Shown piece by piece: positions 1 to 50,546 of a DNA stretch of 62,148 nt. The notes under the pieces were generated by a model. It worked only from the letters and a program-made list of their open reading frames with translations, was not told the origin of the DNA and did no database searches. Both the position numbers and the translations under genes were made by a program. Origin of the DNA: a virus. Its lineage: Duplodnaviria; Caudoviricetes. The DNA is taken from positions 1-62,148 of the IMG/VR virus record IMGVR_UViG_3300037010_004533, one strand, 5' to 3'. Within the stretch, counting starts at the first letter, position 1; every line of letters starts with the position of its first letter.

Positions 1-951
1 TCATGCTCTCCTCCTCGTGAACCGATCCAGGTCATCAGCCAGCCCCTCGGCGAGGTGACCAGCTTGGTCCTGCCGGTGGTCGTCGTAAATCTGCGTCGTG
101 GCGATGCTCTTGTGGCCGGCGAACTTCTGCCCGGCCCTCATGTCGTTCGTCATGTCCAGGACGTGTGTGATGGCCGTGTGGCGCAGCCCGTGGGGCCACG
201 TCCGAACCCCGCAGGCGAGGCCAAGGCGGCGGACGACCATGTGGACGGCTCGCCCGGTGAGAGAGGCTTTGGCCTCGGCGCCGTCCAGGCGCACGAAGAG
301 GGGGCCGGCCGCTTCGCCCCGCCACTCGATCCAGTCCTCCAGGGCGGCGGCCGTAGCCCTGGGCAGGCTCAGGAGGGTCCGCTCGCTGTCGCCCTTTCGT
401 CGGATCCAGGCAGCCGGGCGGGCACCGCGTTCGATGTGCTTCAGCTCCAGGCCAGCCACCTCGCCCCGCCGGAGGCCCAGGTCGAAGAGGAGGCGAACGA
501 TGGCCCGGTCACGGGAGCCGAGCGGGCCCTTCTCCTTCGCGGCCTGCTCCAGGATGGCGGCGACGGCCTCCATGCCGGGGCCACGGGTGTCGCGGAGGGA
601 CTGGACGCGGGGCGCCTTGATCTCGATGCGCCAGGAGCACAGGCCCAGGATCCGGGCCTTGCCCACGAGCTGCTTGAGGCAAGCCAGCCGCCGGGCGCGG
701 GTCGCAGGGGACAGGCCCAGGGCCTCCTGGGCGTCCTGGAAGTGGAGCACCATGGCATTCCCGCGCAGGGGTCCGGCGGAGATGAGGGCTCGGGCGGCCA
801 CCTCGCTATCGGGGGCACCCAGCCAGAGGGCGAAGGCCTTCAGGTCGCGGCCGTAGTCCTCCCGGGTCTTCTCGGAGTGCTCAAGAAACAGGGCATCCAG
901 AAGCCGGGTGAAGTCGCCGCCTTGCGTCTCAAGGCCAAAGTGGGGTTCCAT
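1..951 (-). CDS. Tyrosine recombinase (XerC/D-like; probable plasmid-type resolvase)
   Basis: Catalytic motifs GLRRGE, HGLRHT and GHKSIATTQIY; N-terminal SAM-like domain. Confidence 0.9.
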   Translation of the reverse strand: MEPHFGLETQGGDFTRLLDALFLEHSEKTREDYGRDLKAFALWLGAPDSEVAARALISAGPLRGNAMVLHFQDAQEALGLSPATRARRLACLKQLVGKARILGLCSWRIEIKAPRVQSLRDTRGPGMEAVAAILEQAAKEKGPLGSRDRAIVRLLFDLGLRRGEVAGLELKHIERGARPAAWIRRKGDSERTLLSLPRATAAALEDWIEWRGEAAGPLFVRLDGAEAKASLTGRAVHMVVRRLGLACGVRTWPHGLRHTAITHVLDMTNDMRAGQKFAGHKSIATTQIYDDHRQDQAGHLAEGLADDLDRFTRRRA

Positions 952-1000
952 ACGCGAAAGTTTCGCCCTAAATGTACACGGTTTTCAACATCTTTCGCGG

Positions 1001-1040
1001 AAAAAGCGAAGGCCCCGGGTGGTGTCCCAGGGCCTTCGCT
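1001..1040 (-). terminator. Intrinsic terminator ending the tail/baseplate operon
   Basis: AGCGAAGGCCC...GGGCCTTCGCT stem followed by a T5 run on the minus strand, just after the tail fibre stop. Confidence 0.75.
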
Positions 1041-1076
1041 GTTCACGAATCATGAACAAGGGGGCAGGGTGAGCGC

Positions 1077-1979
1077 CTACCGGGTGGCGAGGATCATGTA
1101 GTTCGCGGAGCCCCAGCCGGTTCGATTGGCCCCGCCGCCGCCGGCCGTGATGACCACGCCGCAGGTGACGATCCGGTTCCCGTCATACCAGCAATACGGG
1201 GAGCGGTCGGTGGCCTCGGAGCCGGATCCATAGGTCGCGTCGTGCATCGAGACGATGATGCCGCGCACCTGATCGGCCGTCGCCACGGTGCCATCGGGGA
1301 ACTGCGGGAGGGGGATCTGGCCGCCGTGGGCGATGACACCGCACCGGATGGCGATCCGGTTGGGCAGGTTCAGGGCCGAGTCCAGGCCGGCCACGTCAGC
1401 GGTCGCGTGGCTGTGGCCCACGTTGCTCTTGCCCTGCAAGGTGACGACGAGCCCGGCGATCTGGTCCTGGCTGTGGCCGTGGGAGGAGGGAGCCTTGGAG
1501 TCGAGCGCGGCCTGGAGCCCGGTCACGTCGGCGATACCGTGGCCGTGGCCGTTCAGGCTGCGGGCGGCCAGGGCGTCGGAGAGCCCCGTCACCTGCCCGA
1601 TCCCGTGGATGTGGGAGATGGCCGCCTTGCTGTCCAGGGCGGACTGGAGGCCGGTGGTGTCGGCGATCTGGTGCTGGTGGCTGTAGGGGGCCTTCGCGTC
1701 GAGGGCAGCCTGGAGGCCAGTCGTGTCTCCGATCCCGTGGGCGTGCCCGAGCATGGAACGGTTGGCGAGGGCGTCCGCGAGCCCGGTCACGTCCGAGATG
1801 CCGTGGCTGTGGCCGAGCAAGGACCGCTTCTCCACCTCGGCCTTCAGGTAGCCCGTCCGGTTGGCGAGCTGGGTGAGCGCCCGGTTATCCGGGCCAGCGT
1901 CGCCGCCCAGCACGAAGTCCGAGGTTTCGAGCTGGGTGATGCTGGCGGCCCAGGTGGCGGTTTCGGTGATCGCGGTCAT
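1077..1979 (-). CDS. Tail fibre protein with seven ~22-aa HxH repeats
   Basis: N-terminal QLETSDFVLGG...QLANRTGYLK baseplate-attachment motif; repeats of HxHxIxDVTGLxxAL; follows gpI. Confidence 0.85.
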   Translation of the reverse strand: MTAITETATWAASITQLETSDFVLGGDAGPDNRALTQLANRTGYLKAEVEKRSLLGHSHGISDVTGLADALANRSMLGHAHGIGDTTGLQAALDAKAPYSHQHQIADTTGLQSALDSKAAISHIHGIGQVTGLSDALAARSLNGHGHGIADVTGLQAALDSKAPSSHGHSQDQIAGLVVTLQGKSNVGHSHATADVAGLDSALNLPNRIAIRCGVIAHGGQIPLPQFPDGTVATADQVRGIIVSMHDATYGSGSEATDRSPYCWYDGNRIVTCGVVITAGGGGANRTGWGSANYMILATR

Positions 1980-1989
1980 GAGGTGCTCC

Positions 1990-2802
1990 TTACACGATGT
2001 TCAGGGTCCAAACCACGTCCAGGCTCACGGCCGAGGTCTTGGTCACGGTGGGGGCGGAGGCCGCAGCAATCAGCGTGTCGGCGGCCGTGTGGATCGAGTA
2101 GGCGTCGATGTCCAGGCCGTTCGCCTGTCCCGTCGTCACCTTGAAGTGGATGATCTTCTGTGTCTGGAGGTGCTGTATGTCCGCGATGGGGATGAGCACC
2201 GAGGGCGTCGTGTGGCCGACCTTCAAGTGGTCGATGGTGTCCAGGACCAAGCCCTCGTATTTGATCGCGCCGTCGTGGTGATAGGTCCCATCGTGGCGCG
2301 GACCCTTGCCGGAGACGCTCGACTCGAAGGTGACGCCCAGCTCGATGCTGTCCAGGATGCAGCGGGCCGGCTTCCACGCCTCAATGGTGGGCAGGAGCAG
2401 GGCGAGGTCTGCGTCCGTCATCGGCTTGCCGCAGAGGGGCTGCGTCACCTTGAAGGACGCCCAGGTGCTCGTGCGCTCCTGGATGACGAGGCCGGGCCAG
2501 CCGACCACCTCCAGGGCTCGCTTCAGGGCCCAGGGGGTGCCCCGGAGCTTCTGGAGGGCGATGGCGTTCTGGACCAGCCGGCGCCGGGCGGCCGGCGTCG
2601 CAGCGAGCACCCATTCCATGTCGTAGACGCCGAGCTGCCGAGCCAGGAAGGGGAGCGCCCCCTCCTGGCACACGGTCGGGTCGTAGAGCTGATCCAGGGC
2701 CGACATCGGCACGTCGTCGAGCCGGTCGATGACCGAGGCGAGGCCCACGTTCCGTTCGTCGAGGATTCCCCGAGGGATCAGCGAGGCGGTGACGCTATCC
2801 AT
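1990..2802 (-). CDS. Phage tail/baseplate protein I (P2 gpI-like)
   Basis: ALPFLARQLGV...RRLVQNAIALQKLRGTPWALKRAL and WKPARC motifs; lies after gpJ. Confidence 0.85.
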   Translation of the reverse strand: MDSVTASLIPRGILDERNVGLASVIDRLDDVPMSALDQLYDPTVCQEGALPFLARQLGVYDMEWVLAATPAARRRLVQNAIALQKLRGTPWALKRALEVVGWPGLVIQERTSTWASFKVTQPLCGKPMTDADLALLLPTIEAWKPARCILDSIELGVTFESSVSGKGPRHDGTYHHDGAIKYEGLVLDTIDHLKVGHTTPSVLIPIADIQHLQTQKIIHFKVTTGQANGLDIDAYSIHTAADTLIAAASAPTVTKTSAVSLDVVWTLNIV

Positions 2803-3895
2803 TCTGGCTCCCGGAGAAGTGGATGGACACGGTGCCGTCCGCCCAGGCGTTCGAGGCCAGCACCCGGTCGGTCCAGTTCAAGAGCTGGACGCTGTAGACG
2901 CCCTCGACCGACAGCGCCTTGATGGCCTGGGAGCCAACGAGGTCCCGGCCCAGACCGGCAGCGCGGTCCTTGCAGTAGGCCAGGGCGGCGGCGTTCACGG
3001 CGTCCAGCACCTTGTCGGTCAGGGCGCTCGCATAGGTCGTGACGTTCGCCTCCAGGGTGTAGGCCACGCGGGTCGGGTCGCTCACGTCCACGATGTCGCA
3101 GAGGGGGCGCACCGTCTCGGCGGACAGGGCGTCCGTCACAGCGTTCTTGACCGCCGTGGAGGGCAGACCATCATCGCAGAGCGGGTAGACGCCGACCATG
3201 CCCGACCCCAGGTTGAGCACGGCCACGTCGATGATCGAGCTGTGGGCGCTCATCGCGTGGAACTTGTAGGCGCCCTCGGAGCCGGCCACGGAGAACCCGA
3301 AGGGGGCCAGGAGGATCCGACCCCGGAGCTGGTCATCCGTCTCGGCGTCGGACCCGCCGCTGGAAATGCTGGCGGACGTGATCGTGGCCGTGCCGGACAG
3401 GGGGGAGAAGGAAGACCCGCTCGGGATCCCGTTGCCCACGTCGCCAGGGACGAGAGCCTGGGCCATAACGGCGGCCGAGAGCTGGCCGGCGGGGATCACC
3501 ACGTCAGCGGTGGTCTGCCAGATCGAGCCGTTCTGCGCGGCAGCCCGGAAGCCCTTGGCGAAGGTCGTGGCGACGGTATCGACCGTCTGGAGGGTGATCG
3601 TCCAGGTGGTCGAGGCGGCCACGGCGGGAAGCCGGCCGTTCACGCCCACGAGGCGGCCCAGGGCCTCGAGGCGGTCGCCGTTAGCGAAGTCCACGAGGTT
3701 CTGCTCGGCGCTCCGCTGGATAGCCTGCCGGACGAGGCTCTCTCGGTAGGCGAGGAAGTCCACCAGCAGGCGCTCGATCTGCGCCGGGTAGAGGGTCTTC
3801 CCGGTCACGGTCTGGTAGAGCTGGACGAGCTGCTCGACCAGGAGGCCGGGGCTCGTCTCAACGAAGGCGGGAGGGGTCAGGGTATTCACGCTCAT
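2795..3895 (-). CDS. Baseplate J-like protein
   Basis: GGSDAETDDQLRGRILLAPFGFSVAGSEGAYKFHA motif; VRPLCD motif. Confidence 0.92.
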   Translation of the reverse strand: MSVNTLTPPAFVETSPGLLVEQLVQLYQTVTGKTLYPAQIERLLVDFLAYRESLVRQAIQRSAEQNLVDFANGDRLEALGRLVGVNGRLPAVAASTTWTITLQTVDTVATTFAKGFRAAAQNGSIWQTTADVVIPAGQLSAAVMAQALVPGDVGNGIPSGSSFSPLSGTATITSASISSGGSDAETDDQLRGRILLAPFGFSVAGSEGAYKFHAMSAHSSIIDVAVLNLGSGMVGVYPLCDDGLPSTAVKNAVTDALSAETVRPLCDIVDVSDPTRVAYTLEANVTTYASALTDKVLDAVNAAALAYCKDRAAGLGRDLVGSQAIKALSVEGVYSVQLLNWTDRVLASNAWADGTVSIHFSGSQNG

Positions 3896-3907
3896 GTGAG
3901 GTCCTCA

Positions 3908-5332
3908 CTACTCAGGGGATCCAGCGTTGGAAGAGGTTGCGAGGTCGTTCATGTTGGCCGACAGCCCGGCCCAGGCGAGCCCCACGATGGTCACGAGTGG
4001 GAAGGGGATGGTTTGGGCCTCGCGGTAGGGGGAGCCCATGACCTTCTCCCAGCGGGGGCCGGCCAGCTTGCCGGCAAGGCAGTCTTCGAGGAGCTGGACC
4101 TTGAACAAGGCGAACATGAGGGCACAGGTGTCCTCCCCGCTGTCCCGCTTGATCGGGCATCCCCCGGCGCAATGCCAGCGGGCGGGGCAGGCAGCGCAAC
4201 GCTCCTGCGAGAAGACCGTGGCCGATTCGCGCAGCGCGAGGACCTTCTCCTGGTCAATGCGGAACTCCTTCCGCACCGGGTCGAAGAATCCGAAGATATA
4301 CCCGGCCGTGTAGTCGGTTTGGTCCAGCCTGGACGCCCTGGTGCAGGCCGTGATGAGGCCGGTGGGCGTGAAGCTCACGCTGGGCAGGAAGGTGGCGCAG
4401 AAGGCATTCCGGAACTGGATGCCCCCGAACCATCCGGAGGACCGCAGGGCGATCCCGTGCTCCTTCGCCACGGCCACGGCCTCAAGGAACGGCGCGACGA
4501 AGGCCTCATCGCTCGCGGATTCGTCCGTCCGTCCGCACCGGCCCACGGCCTCGAGCATCAGGTATCTGGTGGAGGGGGAATAGAGGGCCACGTCCCGCAC
4601 CATTTCGGGCATTCGGTGGGCCGCCTCCCCGGTGATGGTGGACCGGATGGTCGGGATGATGCCGGCCTCCTCCAGCATCCGCAGGCCGGCGCGGACGGCC
4701 GGGAGGGAGCTGGAGCCGTCCGCGTGGGGTCGGGTGTCCTCTCCAGGGTCATAGCTCACCTGGACGCTCATCCCGAGGCCGGCGAGGCGCCGGGCGCTCT
4801 CCGGAGTCAGGAGTGTCCCGTTGGTGACGAGACTCAGCCTGATCTCGGGGCACGACGCCCGCAGCCGATCACAGGCCGCGAAGAGCATGCCGGCGGCCAC
4901 CATGCTTTCCCCGTCCCCCATGAAGGTGACGGCGCATTTCCCGTGGCGCTGATAGGCCGCCTCGATGTGGCGCAAGATCCGGTCCAGGACCTCGGGCCTC
5001 ATGACAGCGGAGTGGTCCCCGCCGTCCGCGTAGCAGTAGGAGCATCGAAGATTGCAGGCGCTTGTGAGGCCGATACTGAAGCCAGAGCGGTCCTCGATGT
5101 CGAAGGGGGCTTGGCTGGGCTCCTCGGGGAAGGGGATGGTGGCGGGGCGGAAGAAGCCCTCGGCCGAGAGCGCAGCGCGGCATGCCTCGGGGTCCGCCGC
5201 CTCCTCCGGAGTCAGGAGCCGGGCCATGCTCAAGAGGGGCGCGAAGGCGATAACGCGCTCGGGGTCGTCCACCTGAACCAGGAAAACATTGTCACCGATT
5301 TGGGAAAAACCGCTTGGAATGTGCGTCATCAT
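3908..5332 (-). CDS. Radical SAM protein with C-terminal SPASM domain (putative peptide/protein maturase)
   Basis: CNLRCSYC (CxxxCxxC); FMGDGE and VTNGTLL motifs; 7-Cys SPASM pattern C-x12-G-x4-C ... CAAC-x5-C-x3-C ... C; ~80-aa N-terminal extension. Confidence 0.93.
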   Translation of the reverse strand: MMTHIPSGFSQIGDNVFLVQVDDPERVIAFAPLLSMARLLTPEEAADPEACRAALSAEGFFRPATIPFPEEPSQAPFDIEDRSGFSIGLTSACNLRCSYCYADGGDHSAVMRPEVLDRILRHIEAAYQRHGKCAVTFMGDGESMVAAGMLFAACDRLRASCPEIRLSLVTNGTLLTPESARRLAGLGMSVQVSYDPGEDTRPHADGSSSLPAVRAGLRMLEEAGIIPTIRSTITGEAAHRMPEMVRDVALYSPSTRYLMLEAVGRCGRTDESASDEAFVAPFLEAVAVAKEHGIALRSSGWFGGIQFRNAFCATFLPSVSFTPTGLITACTRASRLDQTDYTAGYIFGFFDPVRKEFRIDQEKVLALRESATVFSQERCAACPARWHCAGGCPIKRDSGEDTCALMFALFKVQLLEDCLAGKLAGPRWEKVMGSPYREAQTIPFPLVTIVGLAWAGLSANMNDLATSSNAGSPE

Positions 5333-5334
5333 GC

Positions 5335-5835
5335 CTACCTGTCAGATGATCCACAGTGGACTTCACACGACCAAGACGTGTATACGTAGCAAGTGCAGAC
5401 CTGGTTGCAGGTGCAGACCTGATTGCAGGTGCATTGCTGGTTGCAGGTGCAGACCTGATTACAGGTGCATTGCTGGTCGCAAGTGCAGACCTGATTACAG
5501 GTGCATTGGTTATCGCAGGCGCATACGGACTGGCATCCACAGACGGAAGCGCCACGGAACCAACAACCATTGGCGCCGTCCTGGGCGTAGGCGGCGGCGG
5601 CGGTCACGGTGGGGACACCGTAGGCGCCCGAAGTGCTGTTGAAGAAGGTGGAGCTGTTGACCGTCTTGGGCGCCTCGGCGGCTGGCGGCACATGGTCCTT
5701 GACCTCGACCATGTAGGGGGATGCCATGGTCGTCACCGGGCTCGGCCGCGTGATGGTCCAGGTGGGATTGCCCCAGGACTGGGCCCACGCGGGATTCCCC
5801 CAAGACTGCCCCATGGTGGTGGAGTAGGTGCTCAT
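5335..5835 (-). CDS. Cys-rich repeat protein, putative radical SAM substrate
   Basis: 166 aa with nine tandem CxCxxx units (mostly CTCNQV), 21 Cys, and two N-terminal QSWGNP repeats; 2-nt gaps to both neighbouring genes. Confidence 0.85.
   Translation of the reverse strand: MSTYSTTMGQSWGNPAWAQSWGNPTWTITRPSPVTTMASPYMVEVKDHVPPAAEAPKTVNSSTFFNSTSGAYGVPTVTAAAAYAQDGANGCWFRGASVCGCQSVCACDNQCTCNQVCTCDQQCTCNQVCTCNQQCTCNQVCTCNQVCTCYVYTSWSCEVHCGSSDR
5389..5541. repeat. 18-bp tandem repeat (~8.5 units) encoding the CxCxxx hexapeptide
   Basis: Units resembling GCAGGTGCAGACCTGATT, with synonymous variation. Confidence 0.9.
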
Positions 5836-5837
5836 GC

Positions 5838-6914
5838 CTACACCTGGACCATCTTGAGGTTGCCGCCGTCCACGTAGAGCTTGTAGCAGTTCCCATTGGT
5901 CAGGTCCTTCAGCACGATCCCGGTCCCGGCGCCCGTAGACTCGAAGCTGTCGGCGGTCATCTTCCCGGTGGTGGTGAAGGCGCCGGTCATGCCGGTGTCA
6001 CCGGCCCGGTTGACGGGGGTGTAGCCGAGCGCGGCCTGCTTGCCGTTGAAGGTGGCCCAGTCGGCGGCCGAGAGGAGGCCGGTCTGCATGTTGCTGGCGA
6101 TGAGCTTGCCGGTGATCTTGGTCCAGGCGATGCCGGTCAGGTCTGTATCGTCGTGGGAGTGGGCGCTGGGGGAGAAGGTGGAGGGCTTGCCAGTGACCTC
6201 GCTCCAGGCCACGAAGCCCCAGGCCGAAGAATTGGCCGTGGCCCCGGCCTTCAGGACGGCGCCGTCGTTCGTGGTCCCGGTGGCAGGGACATGACTGAGG
6301 CCGTCGCCGGAGGGGTGGACGTAGGGCGCGGCCACGGAGATCGTGCCGTCAGCCTGGATGGTGATGTTCGCCCCGATCTTGACGCCGCCCAGCGTAGAGC
6401 CGGTGGCGGCCGGCAGAACGTAGGCGTAGGAGACGAAGAGGGAGCCCTGCGCGTCGATGCTGAGGCCGGAGCCCACCTTCACGCCGCCGAGGGTGCTGGC
6501 CGAGGCCACGGGCGGGGGGAAGGTGCTCGGAACGCTGTCGAGCTGGCTCCAGGGGTGCCGGTGGCTGATCGGGGCGAAGGCGGCCGTGAAGTCGTGGGTG
6601 TGCCCGACGTTGCTCTTGGAATCCAGGGCCGACTGGAGGCCCGTCACGTCGCTGATGGGGTGGCCGTGGGCCGTGGCCGGATAGCTCGCGGGCTTGCCGG
6701 TGATCTTGTCCCAGCCGATAGCCTGGAGGTCGGAGTCGGGGTGGGTATGGGCCTTGCCGACCACGAGGCGGGGGATGCCGTCACGGTCGCCGATGGCGAG
6801 CTGGGGGTTCAGGGGGTCGTCCCACACGGCGGCAGGCTCTCCAGGGCGGAGGGCAACGGCCAGGAGACGGGCCCACAGGCCGCGCTTCAGGCGGAGGTCA
6901 CGAAGGACGCTCAT
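5838..6914 (-). CDS. Second tail-fibre/spike-like protein
   Basis: N-terminus (LKRG..W....L.PGE...IGD) resembles the Mtd-type N-terminal domain; HxH...W..ITGKP repeats; two TLGGVK(V/I)G repeats. Confidence 0.75.
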   Translation of the reverse strand: MSVLRDLRLKRGLWARLLAVALRPGEPAAVWDDPLNPQLAIGDRDGIPRLVVGKAHTHPDSDLQAIGWDKITGKPASYPATAHGHPISDVTGLQSALDSKSNVGHTHDFTAAFAPISHRHPWSQLDSVPSTFPPPVASASTLGGVKVGSGLSIDAQGSLFVSYAYVLPAATGSTLGGVKIGANITIQADGTISVAAPYVHPSGDGLSHVPATGTTNDGAVLKAGATANSSAWGFVAWSEVTGKPSTFSPSAHSHDDTDLTGIAWTKITGKLIASNMQTGLLSAADWATFNGKQAALGYTPVNRAGDTGMTGAFTTTGKMTADSFESTGAGTGIVLKDLTNGNCYKLYVDGGNLKMVQV

Positions 6915-7093
6915 ACGATCTCACCTCCGTCGATGAGGGTGGGGATGTCCACCTGGGCCTGCCTCGTAACGACCTGGGGCAGATTCTTGATCTGGACCAG
7001 GGAGGCCGCATCAAGGGGGGCCACGCCGCCGGGGACGCCGAGCTGGCTGGTGGGGATGTAGTCGGTGCTGGTGCTGGTGCCGGTTTCGCTCAC
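6911..7093 (-). CDS. Small virion protein paralogous to the C-terminal extension of gpW
   Basis: GVPGGVAPLD...NLP...IDGGEIV matches gpW tail GAPGGAAPLD...NLP...ADGGEIK; 4-nt overlaps on both sides. Confidence 0.7.
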   Translation of the reverse strand: MSETGTSTSTDYIPTSQLGVPGGVAPLDAASLVQIKNLPQVVTRQAQVDIPTLIDGGEIV

Positions 7094-7599
7094 TTGATCT
7101 CGCCTCCATCTGCCGACGCAGGAACGTCGATGGTCTTGCCCGCCAGAACCACGCCCGGAAGGTTCGTCGTGGGGATGATTCCGCTCTCGTCGAGCGGCGC
7201 AGCTCCACCAGGGGCGCCTTCCATGTCGGTCGTCAGGTAGACCAGCTCGGTGGACTGCTTCGTGCCGTCCGTGGTGCCCTTCGGATACCAGTAGACGCGG
7301 AGCGTTGATGCGCCATAGGTTGAAGAATCCACTTCGACGCTGGACACCTTGACCCGGGGCTCCCAGGTTTCGATGGCGTCGGTGACGAGCCGGACGATCT
7401 TGGCGGTCATGCCCACCTGCGGGTTATCCACAAGCCCAAGCAAGTCGCAGCCGAACTCCGGGCGATGGGGGATGGTTCCCTTGGGGGTGCTCAGGATGAT
7501 CTTGATGGCCTGCGAAAGCTCGTCGATGCCGGTGACAACGGCACCAGACACGCCGAGCGCAGGCTGCCAGTAGGGGACTGCCGGGAGGTCGTAGGCCAT
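7090..7599 (-). CDS. Baseplate wedge protein GPW/gp25 family, with C-terminal extension
   Basis: IILSTPKGTIPHRPEFGCDL...AIETWEPRV signature. Confidence 0.92.
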   Translation of the reverse strand: MAYDLPAVPYWQPALGVSGAVVTGIDELSQAIKIILSTPKGTIPHRPEFGCDLLGLVDNPQVGMTAKIVRLVTDAIETWEPRVKVSSVEVDSSTYGASTLRVYWYPKGTTDGTKQSTELVYLTTDMEGAPGGAAPLDESGIIPTTNLPGVVLAGKTIDVPASADGGEIK

Positions 7600-7630
7600 G
7601 TTTCCAGCGTGGAAGAGGGGCCCAGGGTTC

Positions 7631-7652
7631 TCTATTTGCCCTGGTGAAAACG
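7631..7652 (-). promoter_or_regulatory. Late-promoter box upstream of the gpW-fibre-Cys-rSAM-J-I operon
   Basis: TTTTCACCAGGGCAAATAGA, with a -10-like CACGCT 23 nt after GGGCAAA; one of five copies. Confidence 0.7.
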
Positions 7653-7679
7653 AAAGGCCCGGGAGCGGATCCGGGCCTC
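7652..7679 (-). terminator. Putative terminator after gpV
   Basis: AGGCCCGG stem followed by TTTCGTTTT on the minus strand. Confidence 0.6.
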
Positions 7680-7701
7680 GTGACGTGCGGAGTGGTGCGC
7701 C

Positions 7702-8421
7702 CTAATTCGGGACGGTGGTGACGGCGTTGCTCCCCTGGGCCGTGTGGGTGTGGGCGTTGAAGCTCCGGCCAACGGAGAGCAGGTCGGTGTCGCTCTTGAT
7801 GGTCCCCTGGACGCGGAGCTTGCCGGGAACCGAGCCGTTCGAGTCGAGGGCTTCGTTCCCTACACCGATCCCCCCATTGGCGAGCAGGGGCCCGTCTACC
7901 TGGAGCAGGCCCGAGACGCGGGTGATCGGGGCCTTGAGGTCCACACGACCGGAGGCCTGGACCTGGGCTGTGGCACAGGTGGCGTTGATGTGGCCCGTGG
8001 CGGTGGCGTCGATGTTCTGCCCGGCGGTGGCCGTGATGGAGCGCCCGGCGTGAACCGTCACATCCCCGGGGGTGTCGATGAGCACGGTGGAGGCCGTGGG
8101 GTCCACCTTGATCTTCGTGCCGTCCTCAGTCTCCACGTAGAACAGCTTCGGGTCGGAGACGGGGGCGGGATCTGGGGTCGAATATAGGGCGCCGAGAACG
8201 ATTCCGTCCTCGCCGTTCTCGTCCAGGAGGACGACCACCTGGCTACTCACCCTGGGGAGCCAGTAGACCTTGGCGCCGAGGGCGAAGGGGACGGCCATCG
8301 GGAGCCAGTCTGTGATGATGTTGTCCTCGTCGGGGAGCCGGACGCGGAGCTTGGCCTTGGCCCCGTCTACCGCGATGACGATGCCGCGCCTCCAGGCGGG
8401 CTTGGGTTCAGCTTGCGACAT
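7702..8421 (-). CDS. Baseplate spike protein V
   Basis: OB-fold N-terminus (TDWLP...WLPRVSSQVVVL...GIVLGALYS); C-terminal HTH (HxH) metal-binding tip. Confidence 0.9.
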   Translation of the reverse strand: MSQAEPKPAWRRGIVIAVDGAKAKLRVRLPDEDNIITDWLPMAVPFALGAKVYWLPRVSSQVVVLLDENGEDGIVLGALYSTPDPAPVSDPKLFYVETEDGTKIKVDPTASTVLIDTPGDVTVHAGRSITATAGQNIDATATGHINATCATAQVQASGRVDLKAPITRVSGLLQVDGPLLANGGIGVGNEALDSNGSVPGKLRVQGTIKSDTDLLSVGRSFNAHTHTAQGSNAVTTVPN

Positions 8422-9388
8422 GCCTGACCTCCAGTTCGGTCCTGTAGCCTTCCCCCCGGGTGATGCTGTGCCGGGCTGCGCGGATCAGCCATAGGCCATC
8501 CAGGACGCCGAACTTCGTCAGCTCCAGGTTGCAGCCGGCGACGAGCTGGGGATTCCCGGGCAGGGTCAGGGTTGCGTCCCTCTCCCAGGACTTCTTGACG
8601 TGCATGGCGGCCTGGGCGAGCCGCTGGGTGTGGGCCTTACTCTCGGTGCGGCGCCGAACCTTGTGGCGGTCGGGGTGCGGATTTTCGGGCATCGTGGCCG
8701 TCGTGGAGCGAAGCTCCTTTGTGGTGCCGTCGAAGTAGCTGGCCTCGGTGGCGCTCACGACGACCTTCTCGCGGAAGCGGTAGCTCGTCATGTCGGCCGG
8801 GGTGAGGGAGAGGACCTTGGGGAGCTTCTCCAGGGCAAAGAGGTCATGGAACACGAGCTTATCGCCCTTCACGCTGAAGACGATGCCGTGCTCGGCTCCG
8901 ATCCGGTTCAGGAAGCCGAGGTCCGTCTCCCGGTGCTGGGTGGCCCGGGACCATCGGACATCGGGCACCTCCCCGACGAGGGTGAGGCTGTGGTAGGAGG
9001 CCACCTCGTAGGCGATGGACCGGAGGCTCTTGCCCTCGAAGGCCCGGGACTTGGAGGTGCGGAGCGCCGTCATGTTGCCCGCGCCTAGGGCTCGGATGGT
9101 CACGACATCGGGCGGGCCATCCAGCTCGATCTCATCGACTTGGCAGACGCCGGTAGAGAGGAGGGGGCGGCCTTCGTAGCCGAGCGCAGCTTCGATGGAG
9201 GTCCCCTTCACGGGATACCACTGGTTCATCCAGCGGCCCTCGGAATTGTCGAGCTTGACCTCCAGACCGTCGCTCTCGCCCTCCAGGTGGTCCTGGTAGG
9301 CGATCTCGATCAGCCAGGGGTCGAAATACCCGGTCGCGTCCCGGTGGTTCACGAGGAGCTGGGCGATGGGCTTGTCGATCAGCTCCAT
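8408..9388 (-). CDS. Phage late control D / baseplate hub protein
   Basis: YQDHLEGESD, LGYEG and QHRETDLGFLNRI motifs. Confidence 0.9.
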   Translation of the reverse strand: MELIDKPIAQLLVNHRDATGYFDPWLIEIAYQDHLEGESDGLEVKLDNSEGRWMNQWYPVKGTSIEAALGYEGRPLLSTGVCQVDEIELDGPPDVVTIRALGAGNMTALRTSKSRAFEGKSLRSIAYEVASYHSLTLVGEVPDVRWSRATQHRETDLGFLNRIGAEHGIVFSVKGDKLVFHDLFALEKLPKVLSLTPADMTSYRFREKVVVSATEASYFDGTTKELRSTTATMPENPHPDRHKVRRRTESKAHTQRLAQAAMHVKKSWERDATLTLPGNPQLVAGCNLELTKFGVLDGLWLIRAARHSITRGEGYRTELEVRHVAS

Positions 9389-9630
9389 TCCAGGCTCCCC
9401 GCCTTAATCGTGGTCTTCGTGCCGCAGAGGGGGCACTTGATCGCAGGCGTGACCGTGGGGGCGTTCGCGTGGCCGTCCACCTTGAGGCCGGGCAGGCCGA
9501 TGAGCTTGCGGCAGCCGACGCAGCGGTGCAGCCACTTCTCGCCCATGCCGTATTTGATCTCACCGGGCGCCAGCATCTCCTTGGGGCCAGCGATGCGGCA
9601 GCGGAAGGTGGCCGGGTTGGTCTTCGCCAT
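9379..9630 (-). CDS. Small Zn-ribbon hypothetical protein
   Basis: CVGC...PTVTPAIKCPLC; fills the gap between X and D with overlapping ends. Confidence 0.6.
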   Translation of the reverse strand: MAKTNPATFRCRIAGPKEMLAPGEIKYGMGEKWLHRCVGCRKLIGLPGLKVDGHANAPTVTPAIKCPLCGTKTTIKAGSLEWS

Positions 9631-13798: not shown

Positions 13799-15028
13799 TT
13801 ACTTAATCGCGTTGCTGTAGAGGTTCACGTCGAGGTAGGCCTCGAACGTCAGGCGCTCCAGCGGGGCCGGAGGCATGAACCGATAGCCGAGGGTCAGGTG
13901 GCCACCGGCGAGCTGGCTCGAGGGGTTCTTCGCGGCGTCGAAGAAGGCCTTGCCATCGACCACGGCTCCGCGACCGATCAGGACGCGCAGGAAGGCGTTC
14001 GCGTCGTCGAGGATCTGGTCCACGAGCGCCTGGGTGATCGGGGCATCGACATACTGGAAGCAGGCCAGCTCCAGGCTCTCCTCGATCACGTCGGCGGTGC
14101 GCCGGACGGCCATGAAGGTGTCGGGGTCGGAGCTGCCGGGGTAGGCGGCGGAGCGGTTGCCCCACACGCGGTAGCCGGTGCCGTAGCCGGAGTAGGTGGT
14201 CATGATGCCTGCCGCGTTCAGCAGATTCAGGTCCGCATTGATGTCCTGGAAGCTGCCGTCGATGGGGCGCTCCAGGCCGACGACGCCCTTCATCTCGGTG
14301 TTCGAGGGGGACCACCAGTAGCCCTTCTCGATGTCCTTGGCGGCGCAGGCACCGGCCACGAACTGAGACATCGGGCGGAGCACGGTGTTCCCGCTGCCGT
14401 CCACAGCCTTCACAGCCGGGTAGCAGATCATGATGCGCTTGCTGGAGGTGTTCAGGGTGGTGGAGCGGGCGGCGATGGCCTGGGCCGGGGAGAGGCCGGT
14501 CGCGGCATCGACGTAGGCGATGGCCCTGAGCTTGGTGGCGATGGAGTCGAGCTGGCCCATCACGCCGGTCAGGCCGGTGTAACCCGGGGCGATGAGCTGC
14601 TTCGGGGCGAAGCCATAGGTCGGCTTCACGTCCAGCATCGCCATGAGGCCGGTGCGGGTGCCGTCGCCCTTGGTGGTGCCGATGATGTCGGCCGCGCCCA
14701 CCTTGGACGGATCGGGGTTGCCCGTGGTCTGGTGGGCGGGGCTGGAGGGATCGAAGACGTTCACGACCACGATGGGGCCGGCGCCCTGGGCCAGGATGGC
14801 GGCGATGGCGGCAGGGATCGTGTATCCGGTGGTGTCGGGCCCGAAGAACGCGGCGGCGTCCTTGTCATTGGTGATGAGCACCGGCGCGTTCACGGTCTTC
14901 TTGCTCGCGTCGGCGAGGAGATGGATGGGGGCCGAACCGATCAGGCCGATGACGGCGGTGGCGATGGTTTCCACCTTCCGGGGGCCGGTCTGGTATTCGA
15001 TGGTTTCAACGCCGTGCAAAAAGCTCAT
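13799..15028 (-). CDS. Tail sheath protein (FI-like)
   Basis: FLHGVET, GYWWSPSN, VWGNRS and VRRTADVI motifs. Confidence 0.95.
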   Translation of the reverse strand: MSFLHGVETIEYQTGPRKVETIATAVIGLIGSAPIHLLADASKKTVNAPVLITNDKDAAAFFGPDTTGYTIPAAIAAILAQGAGPIVVVNVFDPSSPAHQTTGNPDPSKVGAADIIGTTKGDGTRTGLMAMLDVKPTYGFAPKQLIAPGYTGLTGVMGQLDSIATKLRAIAYVDAATGLSPAQAIAARSTTLNTSSKRIMICYPAVKAVDGSGNTVLRPMSQFVAGACAAKDIEKGYWWSPSNTEMKGVVGLERPIDGSFQDINADLNLLNAAGIMTTYSGYGTGYRVWGNRSAAYPGSSDPDTFMAVRRTADVIEESLELACFQYVDAPITQALVDQILDDANAFLRVLIGRGAVVDGKAFFDAAKNPSSQLAGGHLTLGYRFMPPAPLERLTFEAYLDVNLYSNAIK

Positions 15029-29859: not shown

Positions 29860-29929
29860 TGGAGCGGGCCCCAGGACTTGAACCTGGATCATGCGCGGGG
29901 AGCGCCGGTCTTACTTAAACGAGGCCCGC
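29860..29929 (-). tRNA. Non-canonical tRNA-Gly(CCC), 70 nt
   Basis: GCGGGCC TC GTTT AAGTA AGAC C GGCG CTCCCCG CGCA TGAT CCAGG TTCAAGT CCTGG GGCCCGC T CCA: perfect acceptor and T arms, U73 and encoded CCA; short D loop without GG; shortened anticodon stem. Confidence 0.85.
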
Positions 29930-50255: not shown

Positions 50256-50546
50256 CTACCCAAACATCTCCGCCAGTTCCACCTCCGCCTCGCACGAGTC
50301 AATGGGGGCCTCGGTGGACCCGCCCAGGGGGAAGAGATCCACGCGGACGCCGCGCTCGGTCGGCTGCACGTAGACGCTCACGCCGTTCACCGTGATCCAG
50401 AAGCTCTCCTGGTCCTGGAGCACGAGGTCGCGGTTCTCTGGCTCGCCCTCGACGTGAAGGAATGTAGGCCAGGGATACTTCACCCTGGGGGCCCGGAGCG
50501 AGGCCTCGACGAGGCCCCGGGCGACTTGATCGGTGCTCTGGTTCAT
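50256..50546 (-). CDS. Hypothetical protein
   Basis: MNQSTDQ...; coupled ORF. Confidence 0.55.
   Translation of the reverse strand: MNQSTDQVARGLVEASLRAPRVKYPWPTFLHVEGEPENRDLVLQDQESFWITVNGVSVYVQPTERGVRVDLFPLGGSTEAPIDSCEAEVELAEMFG

Follow-up and report, generated by a model that had tools for sequence, protein, structure and literature searches.

Radical S-adenosylmethionine (radical SAM) enzymes with a SPASM domain are already known to act on Cys-repeat proteins encoded next to them, as in the pairs QhpD/QhpC and CrpC/CrpA and in a CXXX-repeat system defined in databases only. QhpD acts on a protein subunit, QhpC. Enzymatic thioether crosslinks on whole proteins were first shown recently, and the available sections of that report describe CrpC as a radical SAM/SPASM enzyme which installs ranthionine on the Cys-rich repeat protein CrpA at the motif C-X-X-Q/D, with Cys first (2026, PMC13692751). 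PapB-type ranthipeptide maturases are described, in the available part of the source, as joining Cys to Asp/Glu, at a carbon of the side chain, within short motifs that are repeated (PMC12373016). Here, we describe a pair of the same kind whose genes form part of a phage operon for baseplate and fibre proteins, in a 62,148-bp IMG/VR provirus record (IMGVR_UViG_3300037010_004533; the whole stretch is called the window below). It consists of a gene for a 166-amino-acid (aa) Cys-repeat protein and, directly downstream, the gene for a radical SAM/SPASM enzyme, and related pairs recur by tail genes in many viral contigs. New here are the phage-tail setting, a hexad repeat with two Cys per unit and, judged by model scores, a position of the pair outside all curated families. 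Our preferred reading, to which we assign a probability of roughly 45%, is that this two-gene cassette behind an accessory fibre gene staples the hexads and that the product then becomes an accessory at the distal end of the fibre.

The enzyme belongs to the radical SAM superfamily, with a CX3CX2C motif (C93/C97/C100) and a score of 57.4 bits against PF04055 (cut-off 29.5). The SPASM pattern for two auxiliary clusters (CX9-15GX4C, CX2CX5CX3C and a final C) is present in full as C312-x12-G325-x4-C330, C379-x2-C382-x5-C388-x3-C392 and C403, and both sets of cysteines are invariant in an alignment of 10 sequences (the window enzyme and nine homologs). The Pfam SPASM model PF13186 gave no match to the enzyme at E<=0.01, so SPASM membership rests on the motif together with the fold match to CteB and anSME. 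CteB (5wgg) is the nearest solved structure in a PDB sequence search (E 6e-7), and Foldseek with the AlphaFold2 (AF2) model (pLDDT, for predicted local distance difference test, 80) likewise places CteB on top (template modelling score 0.60-0.69 over 460-468 columns), followed by TigE, ChlB and anSME. In the same model the N-terminus, which no family model matched, shows strands (residues 9-11, 17-20, 27-31, 36-39) and helices (42-46, 48-57) at pLDDT 85-92. A recognition element (RRE) of the systems for RiPPs, peptides made by ribosomes and modified post-translationally, is an N-terminal winged helix of three strands plus three helices which binds the leader; the first 60 residues, modelled as a small strand-plus-helix domain and placed as the recognition element of CteB, may be regarded as RRE-like.

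The top NCBIfam matches are all peptide or protein maturases, namely PapB (71.3 bits), StsB, geopeptide, YhhB, nif11, CbpB and QhpD-type models. The PapB match (NF047865) covers residues 83-239 only and falls short of the cut-off of 340, and the CrpC family (TIGR04463) scores 40.7 bits against a cut-off of 525; since all NCBIfam matches fall far short of their curated cut-offs, the enzyme lies outside every curated family. Among PHROG families it matches phrog_1802. Taken together, sequence and model support its classification as a putative CteB/PapB-like SPASM peptide or protein maturase. The family is rare: the best matches in 5.8 billion clusters are 44%, 39%, and 34% identical (P0001-P0003), the best metagenome loci listed reach at most 32%, and scans of viral contigs with the window enzyme, P0001 and P0034 returned no closer relative among the matches listed; the back-translated 8-residue SPASM motif had 0 matches in viral contigs. 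It is very improbable that the enzyme works independently of its neighbour, for instance in sulfatase maturation, in DNA modification or in an antiviral or counter-defence nucleotide reaction of the viperin type, with the Cys-rich open reading frame (ORF) being incidental. Some phage radical SAM enzymes recovered by tblastn are indeed annotated as anaerobic sulfatase maturases, and the window enzyme gives weak NCBIfam matches to viperin (42.6 bits) and anSME (36.8 bits), but these scores lie far below the respective cut-offs of 180 and 349 and below those of the peptide maturases; moreover, the SPASM motif for two clusters is complete, no sulfatase turns up in this region of the window in the ORF list or by Pfam, and adjacency to a Cys-rich ORF recurs across the lineage.

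The 166-aa protein contains nine consecutive C-x-C-x-x-x units at residues 99-152; all of its 21 cysteines fall within residues 91-161, leaving residues 1-90 Cys-free. A reading of the locus made earlier from the letters alone (the sequence-only reading) had reported these nine units together with an extra fibre and an enzyme with a full 7-Cys SPASM domain, and the translation, the Pfam PTR match and the 10-sequence alignment bear it out. A DNA tandem repeat of period 36 (5401-5523; 3.0-3.4 copies, 90-95% matches) underlies the array and suggests recent expansion or contraction of the number of hexads. The AF2 model is of low confidence (mean pLDDT 53, below 50 in the repeat region), with residues 55-95 modelled as a small beta-sheet, and a protein atlas gave no usable feature match, its matches being limited to the protein's own low-confidence model. 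Homologs are few: of 1.84 billion representatives, 13 match at E<=1e-3 and a single one at E<=1e-10. The latter, P0034 (255 aa), is 48% identical and has the N-terminal region and the hexads in common with the window protein; the hexads are followed by a Hint-like domain (three Hint-type Pfam models, all sub-threshold, 25.7 bits vs 28.4), a possible sign of self-cleavage where the array of repeats ends. The weaker homologs are bacterial hexad-repeat proteins.

Evidence that the protein is the substrate of the enzyme comes from loci chosen by similarity to the radical SAM enzyme alone (at least 80 genome, at least 76 viral, and at least 80 metagenome loci; locus counts here and below are among the matches listed). 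Bacterial relatives of about 30% identity have hexad-repeat or short Cys/Asp-rich ORFs directly adjoining, and a strict run of at least three hexads in one ORF occurs in 18 of the 80 genome loci listed, usually immediately downstream of the radical SAM gene. Two loci, L006 and L013, have in common the operon order PqqD-like protein, radical SAM enzyme, hexad-repeat protein, TPR protein and B12-radical SAM enzyme. In a FastTree tree of 268 non-redundant radical SAM enzymes, the window sequence groups with P0001-P0003 (support 100 and 99). The next clade (20-24 rows; support 71 and 85) contains loci L002, L017, L021, and L022, all with short Cys/Asp-rich ORFs directly downstream of the enzyme, and the enclosing clade of 112-115 rows (support 59 for 112, 91 for 115) contains 16 of the 17 genome rows that have a hexad-repeat ORF within 3 kb. 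Position 4 of the hexad is N/D/E/Q in 8/9 window units, 59/73 bacterial and metagenome units, and 89/101 units of database proteins, and the distance from the first Cys to this position is exactly the C-X-X-Q/D spacing of CrpA. Given the adjacency within the lineage, the clade pattern, the acceptor-like position 4 and the CrpA spacing, we therefore regard the 166-aa protein as very probably the substrate of the adjacent enzyme.

That the chemistry performed on it is thioether formation is a somewhat weaker prediction, which we nevertheless favour. The sequence-only reading had the enzyme crosslinking its neighbour; here, the identity of a SPASM maturase and its Cys-protein substrate has gained support from the conserved adjacency and from position 4, while the crosslink itself stays a prediction. 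There is a small chance that the Cys-repeat protein instead assists fibre assembly or is a metal-thiolate protein, as a Cys counterpart to the H-x-H metal sites of fibres, with the enzyme helping to load metal or carrying out another reaction on it (a C-C link, epimerisation or an alpha-carbon sactionine). Its gene directly follows a fibre gene, which is the position of fibre-assembly genes, C-x-C is the classic motif of thiolate clusters, and the PTR fibres and spike of the window are full of H-x-H; in addition, neighbouring SPASM families perform several chemistries. A conserved N/D/E/Q at position 4 fits a side-chain acceptor, though, and the best family matches of the enzyme are the thioether formers PapB, StsB, and CteB, both of which argue, though not decisively, against such a role.

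Beyond the immediate lineage, similar pairs are frequent in viruses. A same-strand nearby ORF with at least 8 Cys in 40 aa was found at 66 of the 76 viral loci listed, mostly adjacent to the enzyme, and a periodic Cys-repeat ORF lies within 3 kb of 45/60 non-redundant viral radical SAM ORFs, compared with 23/104 in genomes and 2/72 in metagenomes. The repeat proteins fall into several classes: proteins of about 200 aa with three-Cys heptads, often in tandem copies beside three radical SAM genes (e.g., L110); CXXX-repeat proteins of 150-414 aa in gut phage contigs; proteins of about 850 aa with CxxC repeats; and Cys-repeat runs within proteins of 735 to 1505 aa (L086, 931 aa; L147, 1179-1505 aa; L148, 735 aa). 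The CXXX system is abundant in viral contigs, where its enzymes approach the TIGR04115 model and its targets pass TIGR04114; at L103 the enzyme scores 290 bits and the repeat protein 26.1 (cut-off 20). Among 49 non-redundant repeat proteins from viruses, four contain Peptidase_S74, a chaperone which cleaves itself and is characteristic of trimeric fibres and spikes, in some at the C-terminus, and one contains a Hint module. The 25 PHROG families most matched by 146 flanking viral ORFs comprise 16 tail, baseplate or structural families, among them baseplate wedge (6 members) and several tail-fibre families, as well as 3 radical SAM families, and include no head, packaging or replication family. 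A DNA-pattern scan of viral contigs for C-x-C-[polar]-x-V returned 28 stretches, two of which are real ORFs (L249 and L260), both beside radical SAM genes; the order at L260 is tail sheath, tail protein, 308-aa ORF, radical SAM enzyme, C-x-C-type Cys-repeat protein, tail protein. The other 26 stretches were rejected as simple DNA repeats or non-coding frames. For the window locus, the viral pairs represent a recurring theme, not orthology.

One arrangement stands out among these contigs. At L110 (7989-14622), and similarly at L087, L088, L092-L094, L113, L114, L118, L121, L122, L124, and L130, two or three consecutive SPASM-type radical SAM genes are followed by one to four tandem paralogs of about 200 aa, which end in three-Cys heptad repeats and then the first residues of a Peptidase_S74-like motif. 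At L110, successive ORFs adjoin in head-to-tail orientation, and an additional ORF of 88 aa (14356-14622) gives a weak match to the C-terminus of tail fibres. For L113 and L087, a fused S74 domain scores above the Pfam cut-off.

The position of the pair within the window points in the direction of the tail. The region is a P2/BcepMu-type baseplate module: the V, W, J, and I genes follow one another in that order, all on the same strand, and a fibre gene comes next. The sequence-only reading had taken adjacency of gpW and gpJ as the norm, which holds in BcepMu, the nearest named phage by gpJ (43% identity), where V-W-J-I-H are contiguous (gp48-gp52 region) and W overlaps J. The 3.2 kb between W and J in the window therefore constitute an insertion relative to that layout. 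Named gpJ homologs, from Paracoccus, Lysobacter, Burkholderia, and Herbaspirillum, are at most 47% identical, and two relatives, L238 and L239, encode a gpJ which is 60-61% identical to that of the window. The W-J slot of L238 is taken up by a PTR fibre of 558 aa, after which come ORFs of 178 and 72 aa, and that of L239 by a PTR/K1-lyase_C spike of 664 aa with a 78-aa ORF behind it; neither slot contains a radical SAM gene. Since the slot is filled in both, it can be described as a variable second receptor-binding module, in which the Cys protein takes the place of the post-fibre accessory ORFs of these relatives. The accessory fibre of the window is 54% identical to the W-J fibre of L238 over the first 250 aa and diverges beyond. 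H-x-H, the motif of metal-binding fibre cores such as those of T4 and P2 fibres, is abundant in both PTR fibres of the window and at the tip of its gpV spike. At 46% identity, the 60-aa ORF upstream of the accessory fibre resembles the extension at the C-terminus of gpW (residues 112-168; BLASTP E 1e-13), and it also matches the minor tail protein family phrog_1446 (E 9e-6). Pfam GPW_gp25 spans only residues 26-99 of gpW, which is likewise long in L238 (185 aa) and L239 (174 aa), and the extension and its 60-aa copy may form a fibre-docking module.

In the preferred reading, a protein-modification cassette would have been inserted directly behind the accessory fibre gene, in the variable W-J slot of a BcepMu/P2-type operon. 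Upon late expression, the RRE-like N-terminal domain of the enzyme would bind the Cys-free N-terminal part of the 166-aa protein, and the enzyme would place a single thioether in each hexad, joining its first Cys to the N/D/Q three residues later at a carbon of the side chain (ranthionine type, as in CrpC/CrpA). Up to eight staples could result, and every hexad would keep its second Cys available to bind metal or to form further links. It is proposed that the stapled protein is used in the cytoplasm and that neither a leader protease nor an exporter is therefore needed. As a distal cap or adhesin, it would then attach to the accessory fibre, its gene being located where those of fibre-tip or fibre-assembly proteins usually lie, and the outcome would be a redox- and protease-resistant fibre tip. 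The combined evidence suggests that some phages chemically staple a tail-associated protein, and a virion role of the 166-aa protein is plausible.

Several observations weigh against a role in the virion. The 166-aa protein has no Pfam, NCBIfam or PHROG match, and hence no detected similarity to a tail family or to any known structural family of virion proteins; tblastn against 50,697 phage records gave no match either, and its N-terminal part loosely aligns with bacterial leader regions. The closest radical SAM-repeat pairs with retrieved context lie in bacterial RiPP-like clusters, not in tail modules (e.g., cassettes at L006 7411-12452 and L013 7321-12891, with hexad proteins at 9206-9574 and 9187-9570, respectively). 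The 131 ORFs flanking 17 bacterial and metagenome hexad cassettes are headed by Radical_SAM (17), Peptidase_U32 (8), TPR_16 (8), B12-binding (7), and WD40 (5), and no phage family is found among their 25 most frequent Pfam families. Many of the bacterial hexad proteins (P0036, P0038-P0050, L006, L013), none of which reaches the cut-off of an NCBIfam model, have a leader-like N-terminus, a twin-arginine signal, and a common aromatic C-terminal motif; several would thus be exported cell proteins and not virion parts. Since L238 and L239 make a tail of this type although they lack the pair, assembly does not require it. The viral enzymes are only 22-33% identical to that of the window over partial lengths and accompany repeats of other periods, the viral loci are partly redundant, and the tree was built with FastTree only and contains many long branches.

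These points bear in part on another explanation, in which the phage has captured a RiPP-like cassette and carries it as cargo: the modification would be the same, but the product would not belong to the virion; it would be released upon lysis or made in the lysogen, and would act on metals or on other cells, as the bacterial relatives presumably do. We consider this rather unlikely, though it deserves serious attention. The bacterial clusters named above, with their extra radical SAM and B12-radical SAM enzymes, U32 peptidases and TPR proteins, speak for it, as do the short leader-plus-core peptides encoded by sister rows of the window clade, the lack of a tail-family match in Pfam and PHROG for the 166-aa protein, and the absence of the pair from L238 and L239. 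Tail-fibre regions are, moreover, known sites of cargo genes, such as lambda lom. On the other side, the scans showed no promoter or terminator belonging to the pair, and the gaps at the fibre/Cys-protein and Cys-protein/radical SAM junctions measure 2 nt, so it is probably expressed with the baseplate genes. The 166-aa protein, unlike the bacterial forms, has neither a signal peptide nor a twin-arginine motif. Moreover, no protease or exporter was found among the nearby genes, and the distant viral pairs are predominantly embedded among tail genes. The sequence-only reading had expected such pairs to co-occur in tail modules and would have counted as refuted by pairs lying mainly outside them with exporters or proteases; the distant viral pairs, mostly among tail and baseplate genes, agree with it, whereas the closest pairs of known context, in bacterial RiPP-like clusters, do not. 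Its idea of a crosslinked fibre-tip or baseplate protein fits the fibre slot seen in L238 and L239, while virion incorporation and the crosslinks themselves are still conjectural.

The layout of the operon, read on the minus strand from the ORF list and Pfam, is given in Table 1.

Table 1. Features of the baseplate and fibre region of the window
Feature	Positions	Strand	Basis
Integrase	1-951	minus	
Main PTR tail fibre, gpH position	1077-1979	minus	Pfam PTR 133.9 bits, 4 stretches
gpI baseplate protein	1990-2802	minus	Pfam Tail_P2_I 77.7 bits
gpJ baseplate protein, downstream neighbour of the radical SAM gene	2795-3895	minus	Pfam Baseplate_J 161 bits
Putative radical SAM/SPASM maturase, 474 aa, RRE-like N-terminal domain	3908-5332	minus	Pfam Radical_SAM 57.4 bits
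166-aa Cys-repeat protein, predicted substrate of the radical SAM enzyme	5335-5835	minus	ORF list, translation
Array of nine C-x-C-[N/D/Q]-x-x hexads, residues 99-152	5380-5541	minus	translation
Accessory tail fibre, 358 aa, PTR repeat	5838-6914	minus	Pfam PTR 33.6 bits; 16 PHROG matches, mostly tail
60-aa ORF, paralog of the gpW C-terminal extension; candidate fibre adaptor	6911-7093	minus	BLASTP; phrog_1446
gpW/gp25 baseplate wedge protein with a C-terminal extension of about 55 aa	7090-7599	minus	Pfam GPW_gp25 56.3 bits, cut-off 27.2
Inverted repeat upstream of gpW	7622-7644	n/a	3 matches in window vs 0.12 expected
Terminator-like hairpin after gpV, putative	7654-7679	minus	consensus scan: 9-bp stem, 7 GC pairs, T-rich tail
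gpV-type baseplate spike, upstream neighbour	7702-8421	minus	Pfam Phage_base_V 33.1 bits, cut-off 23.8

The four ORFs between gpW and gpJ lie where the sequence-only reading had put them, and its description of their tight joints agrees with the junction coordinates and sequences: gpW and the 60-aa ORF overlap by 4 nt, as do the 60-aa ORF and the fibre gene, and gaps of 2 nt, 2 nt, and 12 nt separate fibre and Cys-protein, Cys-protein and radical SAM, and radical SAM and gpJ genes, respectively. A Shine-Dalgarno-like AGG or GAGGA is found immediately 5' of each start codon. The fibre/Cys-protein (5833-5842) and Cys-protein/radical SAM (5330-5339) junctions have an identical layout of stop, 2-nt spacer, and start with AGG ahead, which is consistent with translational coupling or modular insertion. 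The terminator scan found no terminator-like site on the minus strand from gpW to the distal fibre, and a sigma-70 scan of the minus strand was equally negative. The late-promoter box claimed earlier at 7631-52 could not be verified: the site holds the inverted repeat at 7622-7644 and the hairpin at 7679-7654, and no Ogr-type TGT-N12-ACA element was seen in 7590-7720. The inverted repeat, with its common 6-base arms, recurs at 339-362 and 50469-50488. The earlier claim that no transporter or protease for a secreted RiPP is present stands for all genes from gpV to the integrase (1 to 8421; ORF list and Pfam), and with a predicted substrate of 166 aa the locus is not a classical RiPP cluster. 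A single tRNA-Gly (CCC) gene lies on the minus strand at 29860-29929, a possible mark of a prophage boundary, and the 62,148-bp record far exceeds a genome of BcepMu size.

If the product is part of the particle, it would represent a new type of virion post-translational modification and provide a biological role for protein-level RiPP chemistry, namely a hard, redox-proof fibre part. The stapled proteins would then form a new class of compact scaffolds which evolve by repeat expansion, and it would become clear why SPASM radical SAM genes, a type commonly assigned to auxiliary metabolism or "antibiotic synthesis", occur in many phages; the available part of a cyanophage paper, for instance, places such an enzyme under "antibiotic synthesis genes" (PMC12801897). 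We tentatively put forward that radical SAM stapling of Cys-repeat modules is a widespread and as yet undescribed maturation step of phage tail fibres and accessory proteins, although the odds for this broader proposal are below even. If it holds, such stapling would be the covalent counterpart of metal-stabilized H-x-H fibre cores, with the window representing a bacterial cassette recruited to the distal end of an accessory fibre. A literature search found no paper on a phage radical SAM enzyme paired with a Cys-repeat tail protein. The supplementary list of Cys-rich proteins in PMC13692751 may include relatives, and a term search of the text of that report returned no mention of phages.

Among the known systems, the H-x-H and Peptidase_S74 fibre tips resemble the array in their short periodic ligand motifs; this is an analogy only, as the 166-aa protein contains neither S74 nor H-x-H. 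CteB, the thermocellin sactisynthase (5WGG/5WHY), is nearest to the window enzyme by both sequence and fold and, as modelled, has the same three-domain layout, but the two are only 15-17% identical and CteB forms an alpha-carbon thioether on a short peptide within a classical RiPP cluster. The PapB family provides the best NCBIfam match, whereas the acceptors in the window differ, being mostly Asn and Gln. The CXXX-repeat system (TIGR04115 maturase; TIGR04114/TIGR04117 targets), for whose chemistry or role a literature search found no paper, similarly combines a SPASM radical SAM enzyme with a tandem Cys-repeat protein. It differs in repeat period and enzyme clade, and TIGR04115 lies outside the best 25 of the 55 NCBIfam families matched by the window enzyme. 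The bacterial hexad cassettes share C-x-C-[N/D/E/Q]-x-[V] hexads beside a radical SAM enzyme of the same large clade, but their enzymes are about 30% identical, the gene order is reversed, the PqqD-like protein is separate, the neighbours are TPR, B12-radical SAM and U32 proteins, many substrates have a twin-arginine signal and an aromatic C-terminal motif, and the context is not that of a phage. Lastly, CrpC/CrpA of Methanococcus voltae (TIGR04463), as portrayed in the available sections of the report, resembles the window pair in the core and 7-Cys SPASM domain of its enzyme, which has an RRE where the window enzyme is RRE-like, and in its adjacent Cys-rich repeat protein, which likewise has a Cys-free N-terminal part, C-terminal repeats with Q/D three residues after Cys, and no known leader protease (PMC13692751). 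The CrpA unit comprises 17 residues as opposed to the 6 residues of the C-x-C hexad, and it is the window pair which is set in a phage baseplate operon.

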